Positions 3,088-64,000 of a DNA stretch of 64,000 nt are shown one piece after another. Source of the DNA: Pseudomonadota bacterium. GTDB taxonomy: Bacteria; Myxococcota_A; UBA9042. The DNA lies in contig SXRM01000037.1 in the NCBI GenBank assembly GCA_005792545.1, forward strand, positions 1,706 through 65,705, read 5' to 3'. Every line of letters starts with the position of its first letter. The stretch's first letter is position 1. The notes beneath the pieces are model-generated. The model saw nothing but the letters and a program-made list of their open reading frames with translations. It was not told the origin of the DNA and made no database searches. The position numbers and the translations under genes were made by a program.

Positions 3088-3738
3088 ATGCCTGACCGAC
3101 CTGGTGCACCATCCAAGCCGGCGTCGCAGCGTGGTCGCACGCTACGGGTCAATGCGGCGCAGTTCGTGGCGGCAGTCAATAAGGTCGGCGAGGTGCCGCA
3201 TGGGCCGCCTGAGGTCGCGTTCTGCGGTCGCAGCAACGTCGGCAAGTCGTCGCTTATCAACGCCATGTGCAACCAGAACGCACTTGCGCGCACCAGCAAG
3301 ACTCCAGGGCGCACGCAGTCGGTGGTGCTGTTCGACGCGACGCTGTCGAGCGGCCAGGTGCTGCGCCTGGTCGACCTGCCGGGCTTCGGACATGCGGAAG
3401 TCAGCAAGACCATGCTCGCGGCGTTCGCGGAGATGATCCAGTACTACCTGCTGGCGTCGCAGCAGCTCAAGCTCGTGGTCATCTTGCAAGACTGCCGCCG
3501 CGACCGCGACGACGACGCCATCGGTTTTGCGGGCTGGCTGCGCGACAACCACGTCGCCTATACCGTCGTCGCTACCAAGTCGGACGCCGTACCCGCCACC
3601 CGCCGCGGCGCCGTCTGCCAGCGCCTTCAGACCGAGTTTCGGCTCAAGCAACCGCCGCTGGCTGTCAGCGCACGCGATCGATCGGGCATCGACGACCTGG
3701 TCGTGCGCGTGCGCAACGCGGCGTTTCCCAAGCCGTGA
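3088..3738 (+). CDS. engB: ribosome biogenesis GTPase YihA/YsxC
   Basis: GRSNVGKSS (G1), SKTPGRT, DLPGFG (G3), TKSD (G4). Confidence 0.92.
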   Translation: MPDRPGAPSKPASQRGRTLRVNAAQFVAAVNKVGEVPHGPPEVAFCGRSNVGKSSLINAMCNQNALARTSKTPGRTQSVVLFDATLSSGQVLRLVDLPGFGHAEVSKTMLAAFAEMIQYYLLASQQLKLVVILQDCRRDRDDDAIGFAGWLRDNHVAYTVVATKSDAVPATRRGAVCQRLQTEFRLKQPPLAVSARDRSGIDDLVVRVRNAAFPKP

Positions 3739-4187
3739 GCGCGCCCGTGGCGGTGCGGTCTTGCACGGTGGCCGACGTCGCGACGCTTGCAGAGTTGGAA
3801 GCGCGGTGCTTTGCCGACGCGTGGAGCACAGGCAGCGTCCACAACGAAGTCAGCGCCGCGCATGGTCGGGCTTGGCTAGCGACAGACGACGGTGAGCCGG
3901 TGGGCTACCTGCTGGCGTGGCTGGTCGGCGATGAAGCGCAGATCAATCGGGTGGGCGTGATTGCCGAACAGCGCGGCCGTGGGCTGGGGCTTGAACTGGT
4001 GCGCGTTTGCCTGGCTGCCGTTGCCGAGCAGGGTGCGCAGTCTGCGCTCCTCGAAGTCCGCGCCGACAATGCGCCCGCGCTGGCCGTCTATCGCCGTTGC
4101 GGCTTTGCGCAAATCGGTCGACGCAAGGCGTATTACCCGGACGGCGGCGATGCGCTGGTGTTGCGCGTGACGCTGACAGCGGACTGA
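3735..4187 (+). CDS. rimI: RimI-like ribosomal-protein N-acetyltransferase (GNAT)
   Basis: GTGA overlap with engB stop; QRGRGLG acetyl-CoA motif, LEVRADN, YRRCGF, RKAYYPDGGDA. Confidence 0.85.
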   Translation: MSAPVAVRSCTVADVATLAELEARCFADAWSTGSVHNEVSAAHGRAWLATDDGEPVGYLLAWLVGDEAQINRVGVIAEQRGRGLGLELVRVCLAAVAEQGAQSALLEVRADNAPALAVYRRCGFAQIGRRKAYYPDGGDALVLRVTLTAD

Positions 4188-4599
4188 CAGCGTCACGTCG
4201 GCATACGCCGCGGGGCGATCCACGGCAGGCGGCTGCGACCCCGTGGATCAACACCTTGAACACGCGTGAACCCGCGCAATGCCCGCGCCGCGGCAGCAAA
4301 GCCCGCACAACCACGACGACGTTGTTGTGGGTTTGTCATGCAGCCATCACAGGCGACCTGAGTCCAGTTCCGCTTTGGCGAAGTCGGCGTAACCTGCGCC
4401 TGCCCCGTCCGGCGGTGGTGGCAACCGGCCACCCAGGGCCGGCGGTTCCATAGGCCCGGCGCTGCGACCGAACCCCGCAGAGGCCGGCTGAGACCCGCAC
4501 CCCAGGCGCTGCTCGATCGCGACCTGCCGTCCTGCCTCAGCTCCGTTTCTGCCCGGCCCTCCCTCGCCTCGCAGGCCAAGCGACGAAGGAGAAGCCGCG

Positions 4600-7500
4600 A
4601 TGAAACCACGACCTTGTTCACATTCCCTCACTGCCGCGCTTGCGGTGGCTGGCCTTGCGCTAGCCGCATGTACTGCCGACCCCGGCGCCGCCGGCAAGGA
4701 CGGCAAGAACGGCACCATCTGCACCATCAAAGACAACGCCGACGGCAAGAAGGCGCTGACGTGTGACGACGGCACCAGCATCGTCATCGCCGACGGCAAG
4801 TCGGGCACCGACGGCAAGGGCTGCACGCTCACCGACGACGCCAACGGCAAGAAAATAACCTGTGGCGACGGCACGACCGTCACCTTGACCTCAGGCAAGG
4901 ACGGGACGGCCGGCAAGGACGGGGCGGCGGGCGTCAACGGCAAGTCGTGCACGGTCAAGGACAACGGCAATGGCACCAAGACCATCAACTGCGAAGACGG
5001 CACCACCGTCACCGTCGCCGATGGCAAGCCAGGCGTCAACGGCCAAAGCTGCACCATCAAAGACAACGGCGATGGCACCAAGGCCATCAACTGCCCGGGC
5101 GACGCCACGGTCATCGTCAGCGACGGCAAGGCCGGCAAAGACGGCACCAACGGCAAGTCGTGCACGGTCAAAGACAACAACGACGGCACCAAGACCATCA
5201 GCTGCGAAGACGGCACCAGCGTGACGGTCTCGGACGGCAAGGTCGGCGCTGCGGGCAAAGACGGCGGGACCGGCAAAGACGGCGCCGCGGGCGCCAATGG
5301 CAAGTCTTGCACCGTCAAGGACAACGGCAACGGCACCAAGACCATCAGCTGCGAAGACGGCACCAGCGTCGTCGTCGCCGACGGCAAGGTCGGCCCGGCC
5401 GGCGTCTCTGGCGCCAGCACCGGCGTCAACGTCGAAGTCAAGAGTGTTTCGACGGTCGCCACCGACCCCATCAAGGTCGTGTTCACGCTCAAGGACGACA
5501 AGGGCTACCCGATCGACGTGTGCGGCAACTACTCGCTAAACACGGTCATCACGCCGCGCTTCAGCCTGTCGGTCGTCAGCAAAGACAGTGCGGGCAACAC
5601 CCTGCCCTACACGGTGCTGACGCGGTCGGCGTCGACCACCGGGCCGACCGTCGCCAACCCGACATCGCTCAGCCCGCTTGGCAGCAACTGCAAACCGGCG
5701 GTAACGACCGCTGGCGCATCGACCGGCCACGGCACGTTCGCAGAGAACGCTCCGGGCGAGTACACCTACACCTTCCCGACTGCCGACACCGCGGCTGGCC
5801 CGGTCAAGGTTGGCTACGATGCCGCCAAGATGGATTTGACCCACGTGCTGTGGATCCAAGTCTCGCGGCAAACCGACGTCAACTACACGCAGAACACGGT
5901 GACCTTCAAAGCCACCAACAAGGAATATGCGTTCGTGCCGAGCGGCAAGGCCACGCCGGTGCGCCGCGAGTTGGTCGCGACCGCGACATGCAACAACTGC
6001 CACCGCGGCTTTGCGCCCGAGGGCACGACCTCGGGGTCGTTCCACGGCGCGGGCCGCGTCGAGGCGCCGTACTGCAACGTGTGCCACAACGACCGCAAAG
6101 TCTCGGCGACCGGTGCGGACAATGAAGTGGCCAATACGGGCGTCTACATTCACCGCCTGCACAGCTCGGACCACCTCAACCCGGCCAACCTGTACTATGG
6201 GATCAAGTTCTCGTTCCCGCAGGACATTCGTAACTGCAAGGCCTGCCACGCGGGTTCGCTGCAGCAAGACCAGTACAAGACCCGGCCCAACCGGCAGGCC
6301 TGCACTTCGTGCCACGACTACGTCGATCTCAAGACCAACACGCTGCCCAAGTGTGCAAAGCCGCGCAAGGCCGACGCCAATGGCGTCCTGGAGCCATGCC
6401 AGCACACCGCAGGTCCGCAAGCCGACACCGCCTGCGTCAACTGCCACACTCCGCAGCAGATCGACGACAGCCACCAGACCGTTGTGCCGCCGGACCCGAA
6501 CAACATCTACGCCAAGCCAACGGGCGGCAACACCAACACCAACGCCGGCTATCTGACCGCCGCCGGCTTCGTGCCGTCGGGTGCCGATGTCATCACCTAC
6601 GACCTCAAAGAAGTGACGACCTGGCTGGACGGCAGCGTGCGCAGGCCGCAAATGACCTTCAAGTTCAAGAAGAACGGCACAGACGTGGTGTTCCAGACCT
6701 ACCAGGCCGGCAGCGTGACCGAGCTCATGGCTGGCTTTGTCGGATCGCCGAGCGCCTACTTCGTGTTCGCGGTGCCCCAAGACGGCATCAAGATGCCAGC
6801 CGACTTCAACGCCAGCGCCAGTGGCTACATCAAGAACGTGTGGAACGGCACCACCAGTTCGATTACGGTCGGCACGGTGACGCAAGGCAAACAGGGCACC
6901 ACCGACTGCACTGCCAGCGCGCCGTGCACCTGCGCCGCCGCGCCCAACAACTGCGTGGTGCCGCTTGGTAGCCTGACGCTCGATGCCACCACCGGTTACT
7001 ACACCATCAAGCTGTTCACGGCGCAGGTGCCGGCCAACGCGACCATGCTGCAAGGTGGTCTGGGCTACACCTACAACCTATCGAGTGCCCCACCGCTGAC
7101 GCAGATCAACCTGCCGAAGTACCCGTACGATGCCGCAACCAAGATTGGCGGCCTGGTGGTGCCACCGCCCAACGTGTGGAAGCCCGCATTGACCAAGGCG
7201 GCAACCACCGGCACCATGACGACCGGCTATCAGGGCACGCAACTGTGCGCCGACAAGGCCTGTGACTGCACAACCGCAGCGCCCTGCAACGACTGGGCCG
7301 CCCGTCGCCAGATCGTCGACAACAAGCTGTGTCTGAACTGCCACAAGCAGCTGGGCGCCGCACCGAGCTTCCACGGCGGTCAGCGCAACGACGGCCAGTC
7401 CTGCAGCTGGTGCCACACGCCGAACCGCACCAGCACCGGCTGGTCGGCCAATTCCAAGGACTTCGTGCACGCCGTGCACGGCGCCCGCAAGCGCGTCGTT

Positions 7501-9139: not shown

Positions 9140-10126
9140 CTAGTCGTTATTGCAGATGATGACGCCTTCTTTGAGCGCCGGGTAGTAATACGACACTGTC
9201 GTGCACATCTCTTTGGGAAAGAACATTTGCTTGCCGCTGGTGTTGTTCCAGGTGCAGGTCACTGTGATTTCGTCGCCTGCTTTGAGGTCGAGCGACGTTG
9301 CGCCCACACCAAAGACCTCAACCGGCCCGGCGTCGCGGAATTCAGGCTTCCACTGGGCCACGTTGAACATGGTCTTGGACGGATAGGCCTTGTCAAGCGG
9401 CCGCGTGTGTTCGACTTTGATCTTGGTCCCCATCTCGTGCATGTGGCCCAAGGTGGCGAGCAACTTGATGTCGGCCGGCACTTTGCACTTCGTGCTGCGG
9501 GTGGTCTCGCCTTTGGCGGCGACGTCGACCAGGCTGTCGTTCAAGATGAAGTAGCTGACTTCGGTCAAGCTGGCCTCGGTCGCGAACTCGAGGCGGGCTA
9601 CATCTTGAATCTCAATGGTCTTGGCGCCGTAGTTGACATAATGCGACTGAAACACCGGCCGCATCCCTTTGGCCAGCCGCACGGCGTAGCCCTCTTGGAG
9701 CAAGGACTTGTCGCTGTGCGCATCCGGATCCGGCAGTACCAACGGCTGCAGGTTGACCATCTGCGCGACGCTGGTGCAGTCAAAGGTCTGACCGGGCTTG
9801 TAGTTGCCACCCTTGTCTTGCAAGGCCACGACGTGGTGACCCATCGTGCCCTGGAAGCCGCGAAACTTGCGGATCATATAGTCTTTTTCGGGCACCCACT
9901 CGGGCACCCAGCACAGCATTTTCTCTTCGCCGGGGGCGACCGTCAGCTTGGGCCCGACGAACTGCATGCCTTTGTCCGCGCTGGGCGCGGCGGGCACGTT
10001 CTTGGCTTTCTGATCCACGACAGCAGGTGCGTCGGGGGCGGCACTCTCGCACGACATCGCAACCGCAGCAGTCAGCACGGCGGCGCAGGCGAGCGCGGGG
10101 ACACGATTGGGCTTGAAAAAGCGCAT
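9140..10126 (-). CDS. copper type II monooxygenase (PHM/DBH-like) lipoprotein
   Basis: All six Cu ligands visible: GHHVV (H,H), QSHY (H), GHMHEMG (HxH), KEMC (M); lipobox AMSC. Confidence 0.85.
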   Translation of the reverse strand: MRFFKPNRVPALACAAVLTAAVAMSCESAAPDAPAVVDQKAKNVPAAPSADKGMQFVGPKLTVAPGEEKMLCWVPEWVPEKDYMIRKFRGFQGTMGHHVVALQDKGGNYKPGQTFDCTSVAQMVNLQPLVLPDPDAHSDKSLLQEGYAVRLAKGMRPVFQSHYVNYGAKTIEIQDVARLEFATEASLTEVSYFILNDSLVDVAAKGETTRSTKCKVPADIKLLATLGHMHEMGTKIKVEHTRPLDKAYPSKTMFNVAQWKPEFRDAGPVEVFGVGATSLDLKAGDEITVTCTWNNTSGKQMFFPKEMCTTVSYYYPALKEGVIICNND

Positions 10127-10318: not shown

Positions 10319-11629
10319 GTGGTGCTGGCCTTGGTGTTCACGACCGCACAAATCGGCCACTTGCTGCACTACCCGCTGGCCGTGGCCCTGACGTGCGCGT
10401 CGCTGGGGCTGGCAGTTGCACGACCCGCCCTGGCGCAAGGTGCTGGGCCAGCCGCAGATGCCACGCCTACGAGCGCTGCCGCCGACGCCACCCCGGCAGG
10501 CCTGAGCGAAGCTGAACTCAAGGCGCTGGCCGAGGGCGCCGCTGCCGATGCCAGTTCCGCGCCCGCCGCCCCGGCGACGCCTCAGGCCACCAGCAGCGCG
10601 GCGTTGTCCAACCCAGCGCTGTCGCTGATTCTCGACACGGCGCTGGCGGGCTACAGCGAAGGCAAGCCGCTGCTTACCGGCGGCCACGACCCCAAGCGCA
10701 ACGGCTTCAACCTGCAGCAGCTGGAGCTGCACGCCGAGTCGTCGGTGGACCCGTACCTGACGCTGCAAGCCAACATCGTGTTTGCCCAGTTTGGCGTAGA
10801 AGTCGAAGAGATGTACGCAGAATCGCTGGCGTTGCCCGGGGGGCTCCAGCTCAAGGCCGGACAATTCTTGAATGCTTTTGGCCGAATCAACCCGACGCAC
10901 CTACACAGCTGGAGCTTTGCTGACCAGCCGCTGATGATTGGCAAGTTCTTTGGCAGCGAAGGCAGCCGCGGGCTGGGGGCGCAACTGGGGTGGCTGCTGC
11001 CGCTGCCGTGGTACGTCGAAATCAAAGCGGCGGCGACCGACGCCGTCGGGGCTTGCTGTGCGCGGTCGCTGCTTGGGGGCAACGACCTGCCGGTGCGCTC
11101 GCCGGCCGATGTGGCCTACACGGGCAATCTCAAGACCTTCCTGCCCCTCGACGAAGACTGGTCGCTGACGTTGTCGACCTCAGGCCAGGCGGGGCCGAAC
11201 GCGAGCGGCAACGGCAACCGCAGCGAGATCCTGGGCGGCGACCTGTACCTGCGTTACCGGCCAGTCGCGGACCCCGAGCGCCGCCACCTGTCGCTGCAGG
11301 TGGAGCACGCGGTGCGGGCGCGGCAAGTGCCGGGGCGCTCGTTGGTGGACCACGCCGGCTATGCGCAGCTGGTCGGCGCCTTGGCGCTGCGTTGGGAATT
11401 GGGCGTGCGCACCGAATGGACCACCGGCGTTGCGGGAGATCCGCTGGACCCCGACTGGACCACCAATCGCCAGCGCCATGCGGCGCAGCTGACTTTTTAC
11501 CCTTCACACTTCTCGCGGGTCCGCGTGCAGGCCACACTCGACCGACCGACGTGGCGGTCAGAGCCGATCTGGGGCGCGGTAGTGGCGTTGGAAGCGTTGA
11601 TTGGCGCGCACGGCTCGCACGGGTTTTAG
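10319..11629 (+). CDS. outer-membrane beta-barrel of the zinc-regulated receptor/porin type
   Basis: Signal peptide; GGHDPKRNGFNLQQLEL, FGRINPTHLHSW, alternating beta-strand pattern, C-terminal GAHGSHGF; exact start uncertain. Confidence 0.72.
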   Translation: MVLALVFTTAQIGHLLHYPLAVALTCASLGLAVARPALAQGAGPAADATPTSAAADATPAGLSEAELKALAEGAAADASSAPAAPATPQATSSAALSNPALSLILDTALAGYSEGKPLLTGGHDPKRNGFNLQQLELHAESSVDPYLTLQANIVFAQFGVEVEEMYAESLALPGGLQLKAGQFLNAFGRINPTHLHSWSFADQPLMIGKFFGSEGSRGLGAQLGWLLPLPWYVEIKAAATDAVGACCARSLLGGNDLPVRSPADVAYTGNLKTFLPLDEDWSLTLSTSGQAGPNASGNGNRSEILGGDLYLRYRPVADPERRHLSLQVEHAVRARQVPGRSLVDHAGYAQLVGALALRWELGVRTEWTTGVAGDPLDPDWTTNRQRHAAQLTFYPSHFSRVRVQATLDRPTWRSEPIWGAVVALEALIGAHGSHGF

Positions 11630-11762
11630 GAACTGTCCCAGAATAAGTCATTCTGGGACTGGTTCCGTTTGCTAGCTGGGTGGGTCGCAAGCTCGCGTCT
11701 TTGCAAGCCGACTCGCCGCTCCGCTAAATTGCAAAGCGATCGAGTTGATTTCGGACAAATCC
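11629..11762 (+). mobile_element. 134 bp dispersed MITE/REPIN-like element, copy 1
   Basis: 45 bp core at 11680-11724 identical to copy 2; 38 nt left-arm hairpin; imperfect terminal inverted repeats (14/21); flanked by TTA(G) direct repeats. Confidence 0.75.
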
Positions 11763-11775
11763 TTAGGAGTTTCAA

Positions 11776-24149: not shown

Positions 24150-24180
24150 CTTTGGAATACGTCATCCCCGCATCGGGTTT

Positions 24181-24314
24181 GGTCACGTGAAAAATCTGCT
24201 CGATTTTCCACGTACGCCCCGTGCTTGCTCAGTGGGTCGCAAGCTCGCGTCTTTGCAAGCCGACTCGCCGCTCCGCTGTTGGGCAGGGCGATCCACTTGT
24301 TCTTACACAACTCC
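24181..24314 (+). mobile_element. 134 bp dispersed element, copy 2
   Basis: Core 24232-24276 identical to copy 1 at the same offset (51 nt); flanked by TTT(G) direct repeats; left-arm hairpin of different sequence but same geometry. Confidence 0.72.
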
Positions 24315-24326
24315 TTTGTGCCGCTA

Positions 24327-31273: not shown

Positions 31274-32176
31274 CTACCAGCGCCAGCCAATGCCGCCGCG
31301 CCAGGTCGCCAACAGGTCCATGGTCAACGCGACCGCATAGTGCAGGGCCACGCCGAGCCAGACGCTGCCGTGACGTAGCGCCAACCAGCCGAGCACGCTG
31401 CCGGCCACAATTGCGCCCAAAGTCTCCGCCAGGGGCTTGCCAAAGTGCGCGATAACGTACGGCACCAGCATCCACGCCAGCGCATACGCGCCCCAGTCGC
31501 GGTGCAGGCCAAAAGCAATCCAGCCGCGCCAGAAGCACTCGCCGCTGACGAATACCAGCACGTAGAGCGCCTGATAGGTCGCAAACTCGAGGACTTGCAG
31601 GGTATTGGCGCTATCGAGCAGCGCCCGCGCCAGCGGGTATTTGGCCTGAAACGCCGCGGTGCCGCTGGCGTACCACACGGCCGGCAGCACCAGCAGGTAG
31701 AGCCCCAAGTACACTGGCCATGTGCGTTGCCCGCTCGGGGCGCGCCGCCAGCCCAGATCGCGCATCGTCAACCCGAGCCGATCCGCCAGCAACCACGGCA
31801 CGCCGAGCCTGAAGATCGCGGCAGCGATCGAGAAGTAGGCAAAGCCCCACACCGGCCGCAGCCAACCCACTGCGGGCAAGCGCGGTTGCCACCACCTTTC
31901 CCAGGCATCCAGGCGACCGAGGTACCAGAAGGCACACAGCGCGACGGCAGTGCCAGCCAGCACCCAGGCCGTACGGTCCGTCTGGCCGCGCCGCCACGCT
32001 TGAGGGTCGGCTAGGCGCAACAGCAGCGCCAGCGCCGCCCAGCCGCAAGCCAGATGGACGATGAACCACGCCTCCGGCTCCACCACACCGGCATGGCGCG
32101 CCAGCACCTGCCCAGCCAGCAGAGCGGCAGCGGCAATCAGCACCCACGGCTTGCCCGGCAGCGCCGCGGACGGCAT
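31274..32176 (-). CDS. CPBP-family intramembrane glutamic protease
   Basis: GECFWRGW, HFGKPLAE, LHYAVA; multi-TM. Confidence 0.8.
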   Translation of the reverse strand: MPSAALPGKPWVLIAAAALLAGQVLARHAGVVEPEAWFIVHLACGWAALALLLRLADPQAWRRGQTDRTAWVLAGTAVALCAFWYLGRLDAWERWWQPRLPAVGWLRPVWGFAYFSIAAAIFRLGVPWLLADRLGLTMRDLGWRRAPSGQRTWPVYLGLYLLVLPAVWYASGTAAFQAKYPLARALLDSANTLQVLEFATYQALYVLVFVSGECFWRGWIAFGLHRDWGAYALAWMLVPYVIAHFGKPLAETLGAIVAGSVLGWLALRHGSVWLGVALHYAVALTMDLLATWRGGIGWRW

Positions 32177-39755: not shown

Positions 39756-39828
39756 GGGGGTGTAGCTCAGCTGGGAGAGTACCTGAATGGCATTCAGGGG
39801 GTCACGGGTTCGATCCCCGTCATCTCCA
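39756..39828 (+). tRNA. tRNA-Ala(GGC)
   Basis: Cloverleaf; G3:U70 alanine identity pair; anticodon arm CCTGA-ATGGCAT-TCAGG (A32/U38); TTCGATCC T-loop; 3' end ACCC (no encoded CCA). Confidence 0.97.
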
Positions 39829-56400: not shown

Positions 56401-57525
56401 AAGACCTCGGAATTGCTGCGCAATTGGACGTCGTGGGCCAACGCCATGGAACTGCGGCTGGTCACCGAAAAGGCCCGCGACGTTCGCGTCGCGCACCTGG
56501 CGCAGCTGGCGCGGGTGCTGCTGACGGAGCTAGGCGACGAGCGTCGCGCCAAGCCAATCGTGGCGGAATTGCAGAAGCTGGCGCCCAAAGAGCCGGCCAC
56601 GCGGCAGGTGCTGGCGATGGTCAAGTCGCACAGCGGCGACCCGGCTGAGGCTGCGGCAGGCCTTGAGCAGGTGGTCAAGGAGACCGACGACCCGCAGGCG
56701 CTGCTGGCCATCCACCAGCAGTTGGCCGATCTGTACCTGGGCCCCTTGAACAACCCGGGCAGGGGTATTCGCGAGCTGCAGCGGCTGGTGGCGCTCGATC
56801 CGCGGCGCTGGGAGTTCCGGCGCAAGCTGTGCGATCTGTACGCCCAGCGGCAGTCGTTTGAAGCGCTGGCGGAGTCGCTCAAGCAATGGCTGGCGCAGCT
56901 CGAAGACCCTGACGACAAACGCACGCTACAGCTGGCGCGCGGCTTGGAAATCGTGACCATCATGCGGGAACTGGCCGACGTTCTGATGACGCTCGGCAAG
57001 CCGCAAGAAGCCGCGACCAACTTGCGGCGCGCCTGGGAGCTCAACGGCAGTGACGCGGCGCTCAACACCACGCTCGCGCCGTTGCTCGAGCTGACGGGCG
57101 AAGTGCGATTGGCTGGCGAGCTGCACGACTGGCTGGCAGCGCACCACGCCAGCGACAAGGCCAAAGTTGCCGTACACTTGTCGCGCTCGGCGCTGCTGCA
57201 CGAACGTCAAGGCGACCTGCAGGGCGCCCGCGACCGCTTCAAGCGGGCGATGGAGTCCGCGCCCGGCGACGACGAGGCCACGCTCGGCAGCGCACGGGTG
57301 TGCCTGGCGTTGGGCGAAGCCGATCGCGCCATGCGCTTGTTTGACCTGGTCGCGCGCAAGCCGGCCAACACCGTGCCCGCGGATTTGCGCGCCGATGCGC
57401 AGGTCGGCATGGGCAAGTGTCGCCTCCAGCGCAATCAGCGCGACCAGGCGCGGGCCTGCTTTGAGCAGGCGCTGGCGCTGGTGCCGGGCCACAAGGCCGC
57501 TGCCGAGGCCTTGCTGGGGCTTTAG
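47458..57525 (+). CDS. giant (3355 aa) TPR/alpha-solenoid protein
   Basis: Uninterrupted 10 kb ORF; recurring TPR-like units (...LALDPxxxxA...) throughout; no signal peptide seen. Confidence 0.85.
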   Translation: MIAPDQSAPTDGMQWPVLGDVEQIAEALQYGTADAAKATEVLLELSSREPHPRVRAALLRATASLVAGNDAARATGLYRESFRLFPTVEAGQALAQLTADDPTFQRLFRYGHVVDAVAALAAEGPTAVEALADAARGHVSQGHGRAALLCLDRLLAAQPEHAEAQELRETALAQIEARQEALIAQRLALAECDEADRANSLLAYAELLLAGDEPLADAAAALADAVESGAEFAAAAPLWVEVARALGDETELTRALACSLAAGDALPTRLQHADELVNIAGIDRTAPAAALVALKTLHEAMPDDLAIAARLEGATRLASDDPDGQLEVMRLQAVRDRDRLAETVASLGLASLAAGRQDWAGAERHYRRVRTLAPQDGEALDFFERFYRQTGDHKRLLVALSQRLGATEGRETVRIALEMAQLCEGPLESPDRAVEAFQRVLTVQPDHDGALRALRRLHEGQGRWAAVRDTLERTARAQLAKAAVDPRTKSAAVATLEQLVDVCADAARADDKAAAAQFARQILDVDPGHARALALVDAHLHESGRFAELVAVLRRAAAQAGDAKAGILLRMGNVLADDLGQPAAAIDAWRAALDAQPGLAEAQSRLRHAARATGDSGAVLASLLDEIGSVVGIAAIDLNTPVPETLGAVIAAPAQADVAAQLLEAAVLAEARGDGKRLAGRLYALIAAGTPADDAAVEGVVRCWATADDGAQLLTVLQRLVGLEDQAERKARLLTLQADIQLNVAMDMAGALATAKQARQLSADDSRTREIHIEAAIGVGDLDELRGACGTTKEGLSLFADRALHIAASSEGVGRFRWWQAAATVLHDELGETERAALALSDAVQACLSAAAEPATASTQQFLGAAERGQLCDQLRKYAHDAGLRGAERLALEAWLEVAEGAELRAARLALVDLMVASGELGDADAMARSLAEEAVAERDATMLVQALDRQIGLVQDPEVADPALGWESIADVLTLAAGDAELLTLAGDALLERCMRACGDLAQGETLWPTLARIAVAGLACCRPREAATRLQLLEWQETACVESGQWQGAVQAAQALAEASLGDGAAGSASAAWVRAAEWAQDRLNDRATAEALYRKAVAASPEDTAAWAGLVATLRDGDATALALVLEDVLTLPATGRESRARYALERAELSSALAESDPLGAVWPVVGSLGEVDGLTEAEEALVAIAAGQLDMPEFGSAIAQRLLPVFERHGRAEEAMRCRELIALHAPRRSDARISGLVAVADAVAQGSPRQAFDALFHAVADAPERADLFDRLDALAGRIGAQDRLQRLLRGMAGLDTSGEFVAVAEAARAAVLGKLAQLAVARADYAQVVEACSAWQALQAEAAEPWALAEQAYLALGEGNAADAAAQAQTERGTPAARADAWLRRIARAADEDAALAWEVSKQAVAALPQDVGVRQRHLALAHDLGDDGALAEALAGALDALPSALADVGVARRQLAEALTRCGDDRALQAATSWLALLDDDPADDEAIAACFSLLPALRSANAAEARALLERLEPIADARGESDRVDALLDALVELAADDVTRVELLQRQARVREVALGDQLGALTCLGRAAQLSGNVQTQLPGMTTAGKAALDAGQAPAQVAAAFEWAAASRSQASDRLALRRAGLGVVGDGAGLDASRALLEGVLADDPTDAGAMAQLDRLAAASGDARARLALLSLRIARAGNADEANAIWLERAQIAADAALTDDARHSYTQAALSGDAELRIAARAGLADLCESTGDLVGAAAAVRGLVSDHTDKDDRVGLRMRAAALAQAGEDLPLARDILAEGLAEARDSLALFNAMDAVLADAGDDEALVEHLRDAWQRITDLSDDDRHAVAARWIGLVQLLHGPGEDLANAAANLDSGMLADGAIGDALDALTSADTEGAQWAPWQQQAWSLVAERAARAQDAERELGARLQLGTSGLDRTTRVDGRRRSAALLDQIGETGAALAKWYEVLELGVVDNVGWTDGDVDAIFELADRADSASEAGEYVQLAAAELTDLARKASVLLRLADRAAAAGDREAQWALAQQILAEDPAHSAALAARGEALAAWSDAPPEARVAHARDVAAHASDSARAAAQLELAALLVADPATVEEGARTALAIAQADTSQAQAAFALVQAVADRTEATVALARLAAPLSVAAAAWLQNRARDAGDWAELDALLAASAERSGADDPDAAVAALLELADLRSGERNDAAAAAQALDRARALAPTNESVLRLRLQMADDAGDHAVVADLCEALAAVVQGEEAPVLSYRAAEAWYAADQHDRAIAACDRAVAADDSAADAHLLRAELRDRQGQPEVAVADLDAAASRQRGVDEAAAARLWLRTAELARKANLPEAWSKALAQATGAGAGSRANALAEAGSLEGAWLRRAVADLAPALHAANLAGEALALRRRLADTATGADRLAARRGLAQQSAADGDPVGALATLFEVATDRELPPDDLLEVLVEAHGVAASGALVEDWIDRVAELVGCGDVPEDQATAVVGFAAQTAADAGRADRGADLWDALWDQRPDDGDARDGTLALRRQADDPSRLAAALEKALVFADAADKPTLRIELAALKLDDLGRPREALRLVQDVLAADAAHDEALALAERLTDNAVLGDETLTLLDKHYRATKNWTGLERVLSKRMERAKNAAVKAELAQMLAQLQSEQLSHADDALRSLWAAMQADPRLTTLETIEKLARNSDHDDMLAKAYGQVLTSALRPDDRAQVLTRAAALDKRRGDLAAAERRLREALQVSPNLGDAFDLLDVLLDEQNRFSDLVTLLLERAAKVGESDVQRALFGRAAELARATNDQEGALDAYARLAALDPGDVASRLAQVEILREAGLDARLSTALASLADVTGDRRERAELLCEAARLQHTGADANERIEGLYQRAFAASGACDEAFVWLERHLHGNPRQLIPILQARAEALSKGPTRTLALRKLAHAHRDLDNAADACAALEAALADDKHNAAVLDELIKTSELLRNWTSWANAMELRLVTEKARDVRVAHLAQLARVLLTELGDERRAKPIVAELQKLAPKEPATRQVLAMVKSHSGDPAEAAAGLEQVVKETDDPQALLAIHQQLADLYLGPLNNPGRGIRELQRLVALDPRRWEFRRKLCDLYAQRQSFEALAESLKQWLAQLEDPDDKRTLQLARGLEIVTIMRELADVLMTLGKPQEAATNLRRAWELNGSDAALNTTLAPLLELTGEVRLAGELHDWLAAHHASDKAKVAVHLSRSALLHERQGDLQGARDRFKRAMESAPGDDEATLGSARVCLALGEADRAMRLFDLVARKPANTVPADLRADAQVGMGKCRLQRNQRDQARACFEQALALVPGHKAAAEALLGL

Positions 57526-57659
57526 GGCCTCGAAATGATTGACTCAATCATTTCTCTGGCCCATTTGCTTGCTCAGTGGGTCGCCAGCTCGCGGCCTCGG
57601 AGGCCGACTCGCGGCTCCGCCTTGGGCCGAGAGTGTTCAAGTCATTGTTTTCCAGTCCC
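57525..57659 (+). mobile_element. 135 bp dispersed element, copy 3
   Basis: Core 57576-57620 at offset 51; terminal inverted repeats 14/19; TTA(G) direct repeats; left-arm hairpin GAAATGATTG/CAATCATTTC. Confidence 0.72.
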
Positions 57660-57690
57660 TTAGCAGCAGGCCGCTTGTAAAGGTTAGCCG

Positions 57691-61349: not shown

Positions 61350-61367
61350 TGCGCTGAACGAGCTATA

Positions 61368-61501
61368 CAGCATCGCCTTGAGTTGAGATCAGAACCTTGG
61401 ATAACCGCGGAGCGACGAGTCGGCTTGCAAAGCCGCGAGTTTGCGACCCACGCAACAAGCAGGAACAGCAATCGCGATGGCCACGGGTCATTGCGGTCCT
61501 G
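61368..61501 (-). mobile_element. 134 bp dispersed element, copy 4
   Basis: Core 61451-61407 on minus strand; TATA direct repeats; terminal inverted repeat CGAG(C/G)TATACAG; left arm overlaps the last codons of the CHAT gene. Confidence 0.65.
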
Positions 61502-64000
61502 TATACCTCGCCCCCGAGCCCACAAACGCCGCCCAGTAGAACGGATGCTGCCACTTCGGGTTGGCGCGCACCACCGCCTGCGCCGTCCGCAGTGCCTCTG
61601 CTTTGGGCTGCCCGCCCTTCCAGGCCCGATAGAAGGCCTCCATGAGCGCCCGCGTCGCCTGATCGTCCACCGGCCAAAGGCTGAGCACCACCGACTGCGC
61701 CCCGGCAATGGCCAACGCGCGCCGCAAGCCATGGACGCCGTCGCCGCCGCGAACCTCGCCCATGCCGGTATTGCATGCCGACAGCACCGCCAACTCAGTG
61801 CCCTGCAGGTCCAGGCTGGCGACCTCCAGTGCCGTCAGCACGCCGTCGTTCGGGCTCTTGTGGCGGTTGAAGCCGGCGAGCAGTAAGCCACTGCGCAGCA
61901 GCGGCATCTTGGCAGCGACGGCGGTCGCTTTGCCGGCGGCCAGGAAAAACCCGTGGGTGGCCACGTGCAGCAATTTCGGTCCGCGCGTGGCCAGCAACGC
62001 CTGCTTGGTCGCTGCGGCGCCCGTCAGCAGTCGTGCATCGCTGAACAGTTCCGCGACCGCCTGCCCTTCGGCCCTGGTGCCGGGCAACGCGTCCACAGCC
62101 ATGGCACTCAGGTCTGCCGCGCGGTCGACGGCGACCTTCGCACGCGGCCCAAAATCCGGGTTGGCCAGTACCAGCGGCGGTTGCCGCGAGGCCGCGCGCG
62201 CTGCGCCGGTGATTAATTCGCGCCCCGATCCCAGATAGCTGAGCGTGGTCGTTTCACCCAGCGCTTGGCCCCCGGCCACAGGCAAAGCGGCCAGGGGCAC
62301 CAAGAGCAGCGTGCCATCGGCCGAGACATGCAGGCGACTGGCACCCTTGAGGGCCGGCATCAGGGGCTGAAGCACGCGCCCGGCCAGTGCGAGCAGCGCC
62401 GGTTGGGCCTCTGTGGCCGGATTCGCCAGCGCCTGCCGCGCAGCCTTGACCGACTGGTCCAGTTCATCGGTAGGGCCCAGGTCATACCACTTGGGTGCAC
62501 CGCGGTCGCGCAGAACGCAGGCGGCCATGCGCGCCGGCAAGGGGTGCGGCGACCAGGCTCCCGCGCGCAACGTGTCTTGCGGAGTCCAGGCGGCAAACTC
62601 GACGAGCGCCGTCGCCGCATCCAGCTTGCTCTGAACCGCCGCGACCGTGGCTTCGGGCGCGGTCTTGTCGCGCCATGCCGCGCTGCGTTGGCCCAATTCG
62701 CCCTCGTGGCGGGCAATGGTTGCGGTCAGTTCACTGACCCTGCCTTGCCACGCCGCCACATCGGCCTTGGCCGGCTTGTGCAGGTAATAGGCCGCCAACT
62801 GCAGCCGCGCCTCGCTCAGCGCAGCGACCGCCTGCTGATCCTGCGGGTCCAGGCGTCGGCGCAGCACATCGACGGTGTCGGCCAGCACATCGACTGCGCG
62901 ACCGTGACGACGCAGCACAGTCTGCAGCGCAAGCTCGGCGGCCTGCGGGTTTTGTGGCAGCCATTGCACGGCGTATCGCAGCACGACCGCGGTCTCGTCG
63001 CTGACGTTTTGCAGGACACTGGCCTTGCGCTGCTCGTCGCCACTCCACAGCAGCAGGGCCACCTCCGCGTCGCGGATGGCAGTGGCGCGCACGCGCAGTG
63101 GCAGCGCTTGCTCGTGGGCGCCACGGGCGTCGAGCAGGTCGCCGAGGCGCCAAAGTTCGGCAAAAGCCTCGCCGGAATTGTCACCCGCCACCTTTTCGGC
63201 CATCGCGAGCGACTTGCGCATGTTCCTTTCGGCGTCGGCCAGCTTGCCCTGCATGGCGTCGGTCATCGCCAGGTTGTACCAGTCCGCCGCCAATTCGCGG
63301 CTGGGATCGCCAAACAGCTTGCTGTCCAGGATCATCGCTTTGGTATTGTGCTCCCGCGCCTGCGCGAACTGGCCCGCCGCGCCAAGCGCCGCGCCGAGGT
63401 TGCCATGGGCAGTCGCAGCTTGCGCACGGTCTTCGCCGAACGCTGCGACTTGAGTCGCCAGCGCCTGCCGCATCAGGGCGACCGCGGTGGTCGGGTCGTC
63501 CGCCAACAGCGCATCGGCCAGGTTGTTCTGCGCAGACGCGGTGTTTGGGTGCGTCGGGCCGTTGGTTGCGAGGTGAATGCGCAGGACTTCGCGCCGCCGC
63601 GCCAACAAGCGATCGCGGTCGCCACAAGAATCGTCGATGCGAGCCAGCACATCCAAGGCACCGACGCGCGCTGGGTGATCTGGGCCGTGCGCGCGCACGA
63701 TCAGCTTCTCGGCGCGTTGTGCATCGCGTTCTGCACCTGCGACGTCACCCCGGTCGAGCGCGAGACTGGCAAGTTCCAGCAGCGAGTTGGCCAGGTCGGG
63801 GTGGTTCTTCCCCTGCACCTTTTCGCGCAAAGGCAAGGTCTGGCCTAGTAAGAGCGCGGCCTTGTCCGGCTGGCCCATCCGCCGCAGCACCCGCGCATAG
63901 TGCTCGGCGATGTTGATGACGTCGGGATGTTCTTCGCCGTAGGCGGTTACCCCAATTGCGAAGGCCGCTTGCAGCTTCTTGGCTGCTTCATCGAGCAAAC
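61488..64000 (-). CDS. TPR-repeat plus CHAT (caspase-like) domain protein, 5' end outside window
   Basis: Kinesin-light-chain-like TPRs (HPDLANSL, HPNTASAQNNLA); LHVATHG and VLSACNTG catalytic dyad; HPFYWAAF. Confidence 0.92.
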   Translation of the reverse strand, partial: LLDEAAKKLQAAFAIGVTAYGEEHPDVINIAEHYARVLRRMGQPDKAALLLGQTLPLREKVQGKNHPDLANSLLELASLALDRGDVAGAERDAQRAEKLIVRAHGPDHPARVGALDVLARIDDSCGDRDRLLARRREVLRIHLATNGPTHPNTASAQNNLADALLADDPTTAVALMRQALATQVAAFGEDRAQAATAHGNLGAALGAAGQFAQAREHNTKAMILDSKLFGDPSRELAADWYNLAMTDAMQGKLADAERNMRKSLAMAEKVAGDNSGEAFAELWRLGDLLDARGAHEQALPLRVRATAIRDAEVALLLWSGDEQRKASVLQNVSDETAVVLRYAVQWLPQNPQAAELALQTVLRRHGRAVDVLADTVDVLRRRLDPQDQQAVAALSEARLQLAAYYLHKPAKADVAAWQGRVSELTATIARHEGELGQRSAAWRDKTAPEATVAAVQSKLDAATALVEFAAWTPQDTLRAGAWSPHPLPARMAACVLRDRGAPKWYDLGPTDELDQSVKAARQALANPATEAQPALLALAGRVLQPLMPALKGASRLHVSADGTLLLVPLAALPVAGGQALGETTTLSYLGSGRELITGAARAASRQPPLVLANPDFGPRAKVAVDRAADLSAMAVDALPGTRAEGQAVAELFSDARLLTGAAATKQALLATRGPKLLHVATHGFFLAAGKATAVAAKMPLLRSGLLLAGFNRHKSPNDGVLTALEVASLDLQGTELAVLSACNTGMGEVRGGDGVHGLRRALAIAGAQSVVLSLWPVDDQATRALMEAFYRAWKGGQPKAEALRTAQAVVRANPKWQHPFYWAAFVGSGARYTGPQ

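Follow-up and report, generated by a model that had tools for sequence, protein, structure and literature searches.

A superfamily of short, very probably transposase-mobilised repeats sharing a structured core in uncultured freshwater Myxococcota

Four short repeats of nearly equal length are dispersed over a 64,000-nucleotide stretch of the contig SXRM01000037.1 (positions 1,706 to 65,705, assembly GCA_005792545.1, GTDB lineage Myxococcota_A; UBA9042), hereafter the window, and they raise the question of what these elements are, what moves them and why all of them carry the same core. We found that they belong to a large family of 132-138-bp non-coding elements that are very probably MITEs (transposable elements of the miniature inverted-repeat kind), that is, cut-and-paste derivatives moved in trans by DDE transposases encoded elsewhere. 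The first-pass annotation of the window had proposed a non-autonomous mobile element, and the terminal inverted repeats, target duplications, empty sites and hundreds of copies described below bear this out.

The window corresponds to positions 1706-65705 of contig C270 in the assembly that contains it (G000; 7.03 Mb in 435 contigs, 66.5% GC, estimated completeness of 78%). G001-G010 are its congeners, among which G003 is a close relative. The sampled genomes were assembled from metagenomes and are fragmented, with collapsed insertion sequences, and the source organisms are uncultured Myxococcota from lakes Baikal, Erken, Umeå, Mendota and Zurich, plus CJ01B. Using an nhmmer profile built from the core, we detected 233 copies in G000, about one per 30 kb, in agreement with the earlier extrapolation from four copies in 64 kb to hundreds in the genome. 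The reversed core pattern, searched as a control, had 0 matches.

Empty sites in the congeners show where the elements begin and end. At the locus of copy 1, G000 reads TT[TTA]-134 bp-[TTA]GGAGTT and five congeners read TTCTAGGA(G/A)TT; the element is also missing from two more distant congeners. At the locus of copy 3, G003 reads ...GGGTTGTAG|CACTCGG... (GTTGTAG|CACTCGG) and G000 reads ...GGGCT[TTA]-135 bp-[TTA]GCAGCAGG, with a difference in gap of 139 nt between the two genomes. The boundaries and the 3-bp duplication that had been predicted from the window are thus matched by precise empty sites at two of the four copies. For copy 4, no empty site was obtainable, its two flanks being on different contigs in all relatives.

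The flanks of the other genomic copies were then grouped by subfamily (described below). Flanking 3-mers are identical in 14 of the 18 copies of subfamily E (8 TTA, 5 TAA and 1 TCA) and in 13 of the 30 copies of subfamily B. As TTA pairs with TTA and TAA with TAA, these are direct duplications and not part of an inverted repeat. In the class formed by subfamilies B-E, a C before and a G after the duplication are favoured, which gives the target C-TWA-G. Subfamily A has a 136-nt ACAGG..CCTGT span with the flanks nCTA|T...A|TAGn, corresponding to a TA duplication in CTAG that is intact in 46 of 64 copies.

Insertions into other mobile elements were also detected. In G003, an IS5-like transposase gene carries a B-like copy in the TTA of its GAT-TAC (DYE motif), and taking out this copy together with one TTA restores the transposase reading frame. 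A second, inverted MITE copy abuts the other end of the same IS5-like element (G003:C289, L021, 541-1850). This locus looks like a transposase between 140-bp inverted repeats but is explained by two separate insertions. At three loci, the left hairpin loop of an E copy has an A copy in its CTAG (C378:~6490-6600, C380:~9170-9280 and C270:76880-77040, the last one just beyond the window), so that either the composite itself transposed or the loop is a hot spot. Finally, an A-type core is found within 160 nt of the break at 13 contig ends, as would fit recent, near-identical copies.

The copies have a common layout that consists of a left-arm hairpin, a T-rich linker ((Y)TTTGCTTGCTnnG), a core of ~45 nt and a right arm. 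The left-arm hairpin varies in sequence among subfamilies, with its fold maintained. In the window copies (Table 1), the core reads GTGGGTCGC(A/C)A(G/A)CTCGCG...GCTCCGC, and an 18-mer of it matches exactly in all four. The first-pass annotation had placed these cores correctly, 51, 51, 51 and 50 nt from the left ends that it gave, and had rightly noted that those of copies 1 and 2 are identical. Its view that the four copies form one family holds for the common core and layout, but the copies represent four subfamilies (C, D2, B and A). Likewise, the flanking repeats that it had read next to copies 1-3 were recovered (TTA/TTA, TTT/TTT and TTA/TTA), whereas the 'TATA' that it gave for copy 4 combines a TA duplication with the TA belonging to the terminal TACAGG...CTGTA, and the boundaries of this copy were redrawn. 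A fifth match in the window (31574-31591) was treated as chance, with 3 mismatches and the second half of the core missing. A tRNA gene (39756-39828) is the sole Rfam match in the window at gathering score.

Table 1. Element copies in the window, with their parts and flanking duplications (window coordinates)
Feature	Position	Strand	Subfamily	Length	Left-arm hairpin	Linker	Core	Right arm	Target duplication or flanks	Basis
Copy 1	11629..11762	+	C	134 bp	11629-11666	GTTTGCTAGCTGG, 11667-11679	11680-11724	11725-11762	TTA, 11626-11628 and 11763-11765	sequence, fold, empty sites
Copy 2	24181..24314	+	D2	134 bp			24232-24276		TTT, 24178-24180 and 24315-24317	sequence, subfamily assignment, flanking 3-mers
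Copy 3	57525..57659	+	B	135 bp			57576-57620		TTA, 57522-57524 and 57660-57662	sequence, empty site in G003
Copy 4	61366..61503	-	A variant, TACAGG...CTGTA	138 bp			61451-61407		TA, 61504-61505 and 61364-61365	sequence, subfamily A ends

Genome-wide, the largest subfamily is A, with 74 copies of 138 bp and the ends TACAGGATCGC...GCGATTCTGTA. It is followed by B (30 copies of 135 bp, ends GGGCCTGGAAATG...TTTTCCAGTCCC), E (18 copies of 132 bp, ends GGGCCCCGCC...GGACAGGCTCC), C (16 copies of 134 bp, ends GGAACTGTCCC...GGACAAATCC), D (10 copies of 136 bp) and D2 (8 copies of 134 bp). About 20 'solo' units have no clear right end, and 57 copies, including smaller groups, were left unclassified. Subfamilies B, C, D, D2 and E begin with GG(G/A)nC.., and subfamily A begins with TACAGGATCGC. 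Imperfect terminal inverted repeats are present in each of the six subfamily consensuses, the left end agreeing with the reverse complement of the right end at 17-19 of 26 positions. The elements vary little in length (132-138 bp) or in the offset of the core (50-53 nt), and the loop motif ACTCGAT is still common to subfamilies B, D, D2 and E. The longest open frames in the consensuses (43-46 aa) are attributable to a short GC-rich element, and 6 of the 233 copies are located within a long open frame. Whole elements fold better than shuffled sequences (z = -2.8 to -4.3; z = -4.3 for copy 1).

Which enzymes move these elements is suggested by the duplications. The IS5 family (IS1031 and IS427 groups) typically makes a 3-bp TNA/TWA duplication, and a TA duplication at CTAG is the usual product of IS630 and of IS427 as well. 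The habit of the IS5 family would be followed by subfamilies B, C, D, D2 and E, with a 3-bp TWA duplication preferably in C-TWA-G, and that of IS630 or IS427-type elements by subfamily A, with a TA duplication within CTAG; the TA at CTAG could just as well come from an IS5 transposase of the IS427 type. DDE transposases encoded elsewhere would thus mobilise the MITEs in trans. The first-pass annotation had seen no transposase in the window, and indeed the IS630-type, IS4/IS5-type and Y1 matches of the assembly are all off the window's contig. The genus has both IS5-type two-open reading frame (ORF) transposases (DUF4096 and DDE_Tnp_1) and IS630-type transposases (helix-turn-helix, HTH, and DDE_3). 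The resident IS5-like elements end in GAGGGTGTAT... (GAGGGTGT...), insert at the same TWA sites and often sit exactly at the duplication beside a MITE end. This repeated insertion at TTA/TAA beside MITE ends shows that the IS5-like types share the target preference of the MITEs.

Three points weigh against this assignment of the putative transposases. The ends of the IS5-like elements (GAGGGTGT..) match the MITE ends (GGGCC...) poorly. No transposase gene bounded by MITE ends (GGGCCTGGAAA..., GGAACTGTCCC..., GGGCCCCGCC..., TACAGGATCGC...) was found in G000 or among ~35 transposase loci from five genomes that were inspected for matching ends. The two end types, moreover, are presumed to be those of IS5 and IS630 from duplication size and target. 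The missing autonomous partner says little, because the genomes are fragmented metagenome assemblies, G000 is 78% complete and insertion sequences break contigs.

A scan of G000 for subfamily ends with no core nearby returned one truncated A copy, palindromic halves of the same copies and chance matches. Inverted repeats were also sought at all DDE_3 and DDE_Tnp_1 loci, and the only long ones were the two MITE copies flanking the insertion sequence in G003. A-type ends bound no IS630-like transposase gene examined in the genus. The sequence TATACAGG upstream of an IS630-like gene was considered as the end of an insertion sequence and rejected as a coincidence; it lies inside a divergent small ORF conserved in two species. 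A divergent ORF of ~90 aa (MEPRQFTATQGRYLALICLYIKLNRR...), conserved in two species, precedes the IS630-like gene at G000:C42:~3700-5000 (L012) and at L011 (G008), and the G000 transposase copy at C42 is truncated at its 3' end. Several IS5-like types, with the ends (G/A)AGGGTGTAT(T/G)CA.. or GAGGGTGTGGCCAAAAT, break the assembly and account for 54 of the 870 contig ends of G000 (for example C6, C45, C66, C186, C350 and C367). We also detected a second, unrelated MITE family of ~180-200 bp (G000 C253:3271-3447, C200:14137-14320 and C377:39476-39680) that has the ends of the resident IS5-like elements (GAGGGTGTATTCA...TGAATACACCCTC) and TWA flanks. One of its arms contains GAGGGTCATGAG-GCGCC(CGNAA)GGCGC-GGCGCGACGCGG, which is loosely similar to the box-hairpin-box layout of the core described below.

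The first-pass annotation had combined its MITE-like reading with a REP-like one, under which the copies would resemble repetitive extragenic palindromes (REPs) mobilised by REP-associated tyrosine transposases (RAYT) or by an IS200-type HUH (Y1) transposase. The core does start with GTGG and contains a hairpin, and Y1_Tnp genes are present in the genus, but we consider such a mobilisation extremely improbable. REPs leave no target duplication, and HUH single-strand transposition makes no inverted repeats with 2-3-bp duplications; the elements have terminal inverted repeats and precise 2-3-bp duplications that the empty sites confirm. The Y1_Tnp counts also run opposite to the core counts, with 15 matches in G001 (4-6 cores) and 0 in G004 (~300 cores), and the single Y1 match in G000 is weak, partial and on a contig without any core. 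A replication-linked strand bias, expected of single-strand transposition, was rejected, the orientation of the copies being independent of GC skew (51% on the G-rich strand). The REP-like half of the earlier proposal is therefore abandoned, since terminal inverted repeats combined with TWA or TA duplications argue for MITEs moved by DDE transposases and not for a REP/RAYT system. Y1_Tnp (IS200/RAYT-type) is expanded in G001 and also in G006 (6 matches), and few or no exact-pattern cores were found in these two genomes.

All subfamilies share the core. Within each subfamily, its divergence is about half that of the arms (0.05 for the core and 0.10-0.11 for the arms in A, 0.056 and 0.095-0.125 in B, 0.023 and 0.04-0.06 in E, and 0.058 and 0.10-0.25 in C). 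In the core, a short stem-loop lies between box 1 (TGGGTCGC-N-A-R-Y-TCG) and box 2 (GACTC-R-Y-N-GCTCC), and the two boxes are nearly invariant across subfamilies and genera. The predicted inner stem is well supported by compensatory changes (columns 26:36, GC/AU; 27:35, CG/AU; 28:34, UA/CG/GC) and varies in length, with CCCC-GTT-GGGG in G006 and an 11-bp stem in a copy adjacent to the transfer-messenger RNA (tmRNA) gene. An outer helix in the register GCNARY:RYNGC, with a bulged A, is partly supported: 57 double-change cells were counted, compared with 21 in shuffles (0 of 500 shuffles reach 57), and the path C:G -> T:G -> T:A at position 20:43 recurs in three G000 backgrounds, in all G011 copies and between G022 and G043.

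Other observations limit the support for this structure. The main G010 variant (GCTAAC...GACGC) breaks two pairs of the outer register, and RNAalifold places a different helix, GUGGGUCG:CGACUCGC, which is 97.5% paired and, because it is invariant, uninformative for covariation. The covariation counts overstate the number of independent events, because the copies are related by descent. Taken alone, the core has a fold energy no more favourable than that of shuffles (z = 0.18).

To follow the core among relatives, we searched the strict core pattern across genomes. At up to two mismatches, it was found 195 times in G000, 206 in G003, 296 in G004, 122 in G010, 21 in G008 and a few times in G001 and G009; there were 0 matches in G002 and G005-G007 and 1 in another genus. 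At up to three mismatches, the counts are slightly higher, with single matches in G002 and G006. Across the congeners, the strict pattern gave from 0 to ~330 copies. The distribution appeared to be genus-restricted in these pattern searches, a conclusion that was overturned by a covariance model of the core, with which diverged cores were sought in 401 genomes. Using this model, we detected cores in all sampled congeners, with 36 in G005 and 43 in G006, for instance. In total, 20 genomes had matches, and they represent at least 9 of the family's 14 sampled genera (13 cores in G011, 17 in G043 and 4 in G022). Of the 401 genomes, those from other Myxococcota had single marginal matches only. The exact core form is abundant in some species only, and lineage-specific arms and ends surround the same boxes; for instance, G011 has GGCGATCGGTAAAAAT... 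and a duplicated TAA, and G043 has ACATGCCTGCC....

The element is uncatalogued in Rfam: we found no family match at the gathering threshold or at a permissive E-value, and the only hit in Rfam 15 was a chance-level match to a microRNA (E = 7.3). It had no match in a plasmid collection or in viral contigs, and a literature search on MITEs in Myxococcota found nothing relevant.

The module also exists outside canonical MITE copies. The ~20 solo units consist of hairpin, linker, core and CCATTTTTGGG, with no recognisable right end, and several of them form tandem arrays with a period of 87-185 bp. Solo-core arrays with linker, core, CCATTTTTGGG and a 30-60-nt spacer (period ~87-117 bp) were observed in G000 at C16:~6800-7050, C115:1-200, the contig ends of C303 and C423, C307:80-300 and C173:10700-10900, and several of these reach contig ends. 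In G000, G003 and G008, the tmRNA gene (tag ANDNVELALAA) is followed directly on its 3' side by hairpin, linker and core, and the hairpins of the three species are unrelated to one another. The G000 tmRNA locus (C365:9736-10690, with C365:9736-10098 for the tmRNA gene) continues with about three tandem 185-bp repeats, each with a core, and such arrangements beside tmRNA show the module outside canonical MITE copies. The tmRNA-adjacent module was not found in seven other members of the genus or in four other genera. G010 has a different tandem repeat (GGCGAATTTGCTCCGTT) at the post-tmRNA position.

From the slow divergence of the core and its spread over unrelated arms, we infer that the module is older than the individual subfamilies and under selection. 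A further-reaching proposal is that linker and core together form a lineage-specific, structured recognition module, conserved throughout a family of Myxococcota, that has moved between, or outlived, TA and TWA transposon chassis with different ends and that also occurs solo and in tandem, among other places right behind the tmRNA gene. Such a module might be bound by some protein, either a propagation or a host factor, or might be a transcript 3'-end element retained by the host, and the elements would then be carriers of a functional cassette and not just transposons in decay; we put this forward as speculative and, taken as a whole, unlikely.

Another possibility is that the boxes are bound by a protein on which propagation depends. 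In its strongest form, this means that the conserved linker and core, and not the divergent ends, are what is recognised by the enzyme that mobilises the elements or by an essential host factor. The core would then be conserved because propagation requires it, and the arms would need only to fold, the cleavage site being defined by structure or by its spacing from the core. Such recognition would account for boxes that stay nearly invariant, across genera as well, next to unrelated ends and duplications of differing size (GGGCC.., GGAAC.., TACAGG.., ACATGCC.., GGCGATC..), for the almost fixed length and core offset and for arm hairpins that are maintained while the arm sequence changes. However, no candidate protein emerged, and every subfamily has recognisable terminal inverted repeats, as ordinary DDE transposition needs. 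Common descent with nothing but substitutions explains the fixed length just as well, consistent with the shared ACTCGAT loop, and solo and tandem cores occur without a clear right end. We therefore regard recognition through the core as quite improbable.

The position of the copies relative to genes suggests another role for the module. Genes in G000 were called from codon-position GC bias (80% of the genome covered). The left end faces the 3' end of a co-directional gene in a ratio of 125:30, compared with 68:66 for the right side (Fisher p = 1e-7), and between tandem genes 40 copies are in sense and 11 in antisense orientation (p = 6e-5). A test independent of the gene caller, based on a stop codon within 12 nt of an element end, gave 54 sense copies (left end) and 16 antisense copies (right end; p = 6e-6). 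In a genome of 66.5% GC, A/T-rich targets are found mostly at stop codons, so that the elements land at gene ends, and since they begin with G, a TAG stop is rebuilt. Accordingly, the TAG stop of the gene upstream of copy 1 is re-created by the left TTA and the first G of the element, and that of the gene upstream of copy 3 is retained through the first G. Of 76 cases, 32 have the upstream stop codon at the left duplication; on the right, the count is 6 of 41. Both orientations equally keep the stop or extend the ORF, and the bias does therefore not come from reading-frame effects.

The bias grows with the age of the copies. When copies with at least 93% identity to the subfamily consensus were taken as young and those below as older, the sense:antisense ratio was 20:12 in the former and 34:4 in the latter (p = 0.010), which points to preferential retention of sense copies. 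In a sense copy after a stop codon, the left hairpin and then UUUGCUUGCU are transcribed first. Such a hairpin with its U-rich linker would act as a harmless or useful 3'-end hairpin, terminator-like or stabilising, and sense copies right after stop codons would be retained preferentially. A terminator-like or stabilising 3' hairpin is the most economical reading of the bias, although the role it assigns to the module is putative.

Some of the results do not fit this reading well. Age is confounded with subfamily: the sense:antisense ratios are 17:1 in B, 12:1 in C, 9:3 in A, 6:3 in D2, 5:2 in D and 5:6 in the young subfamily E, and subfamily-specific insertion preferences are a possible source of the age effect. 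The left hairpin is followed by an (N)TTTGCTTGCT linker with only 4-5 T in 8 nt, and some of the stems are GC-poor. A simple consensus terminator scan did not flag the left-arm hairpins of copies 1-3 and returned weak sites elsewhere in copies 3 and 4; likewise, neither a sigma-70 promoter nor a canonical terminator was detected in the window copies by scan.

Taken further, the core, with or without the left hairpin, could primarily be a functional RNA or terminator cassette serving the host, for which MITEs are only the vehicle, its spread and retention being driven by the benefit to neighbouring genes (3'-end formation, mRNA stabilisation or a small RNA). The growth of the sense bias at stop codons with age, the compensatory changes in the inner stem, the slower divergence of the core and the hairpin, linker and core after the tmRNA gene of three species would all fit, and SPRITE of pneumococcus offers a precedent (PMC3049150). 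Yet copy number varies widely among congeners, from 0 to ~330 with the strict pattern, and species without a strict match still carry 36-43 diverged copies, so that the expanded form is dispensable. A functional RNA is also at odds with the lack of an Rfam match and of a canonical terminator or promoter in the copies by scan, and with the shuffle-like fold energy of the core. Furthermore, if the left hairpin terminates transcription, the core downstream would be mostly untranscribed. We consider a host-level cassette somewhat unlikely.

We thus class the elements as a very active superfamily of MITEs, so far undescribed, from freshwater Myxococcota that are uncultured. As transposons they are in themselves ordinary; what goes beyond the ordinary is the family-wide structured core common to TA and TWA subfamilies and the age-dependent sense bias at stop codons. 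The elements make up ~0.45% of the assembly and are one cause of contig breaks beside larger insertion sequences. They may be of use in annotating and assembling genomes of freshwater Myxococcota and, through insertion polymorphisms, in strain tracking. Should the module turn out to be a cassette that terminates or stabilises transcripts, or a site bound by a protein, it would represent a clear bacterial case of a transposon-borne regulatory sequence filtered by selection at gene 3' ends.

Among known systems, subfamilies B-E are most readily compared with MITEs derived from IS5 (IS1031/IS427-type), which are likewise small and high in copy number, with imperfect GG.. inverted repeats and a TTA/TAA duplication in C-TWA-G; two-ORF IS5-type transposases using TWA targets are resident in the same genomes. 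The eukaryotic counterpart of such elements are the PIF/Harbinger 'Tourist' MITEs. The family differs from them in that the ends of the resident IS5-like elements are dissimilar and that its structured core is common to a TA-duplicating subfamily; the likeness is one of insertion habits. Subfamily A resembles the MITEs of IS630/Tc1-mariner type, such as RUP and the Correia elements of Neisseria, in its TA duplication at CTAG, length of ~138 bp, TACAGG... ends, multiple copies and stable fold. RUP of Streptococcus pneumoniae has terminal inverted repeats and target duplications (PMC3049150). Unlike in these MITEs, the internal module of subfamily A is common to the TWA class, and the IS630-like transposases of the genus are without A-type ends.

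REPs and the bacterial interspersed mosaic elements (BIMEs) linked to RAYT are also short, intergenic, hairpin-forming, highly repeated and mosaic, and their start is similar to the GTGG of the core. They are set apart by the terminal inverted repeats and 2-3-bp duplications found here and by the lack of an association with Y1 transposases. The layout of the family is similar to that of BOX of Streptococcus pneumoniae, a mosaic of conserved and variable modules in which tandem units are possible (PMC3049150; PMC10969869). It is also similar to that of SPRITE, a terminator-like repeat that is enriched near gene 3' ends in pneumococcus (PMC3049150) and combines a hairpin with a U-rich tract, for which co-option as a terminator is suspected (PMC3049150; PMC10969869). 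BOX and SPRITE, like our family, are lineage-restricted and have a lower density in relatives. They belong to another phylum and have no sequence relationship with the elements of the Myxococcota, for which target duplications and empty sites, not demonstrated for SPRITE, are established and the orientation bias is quantified and age-dependent.

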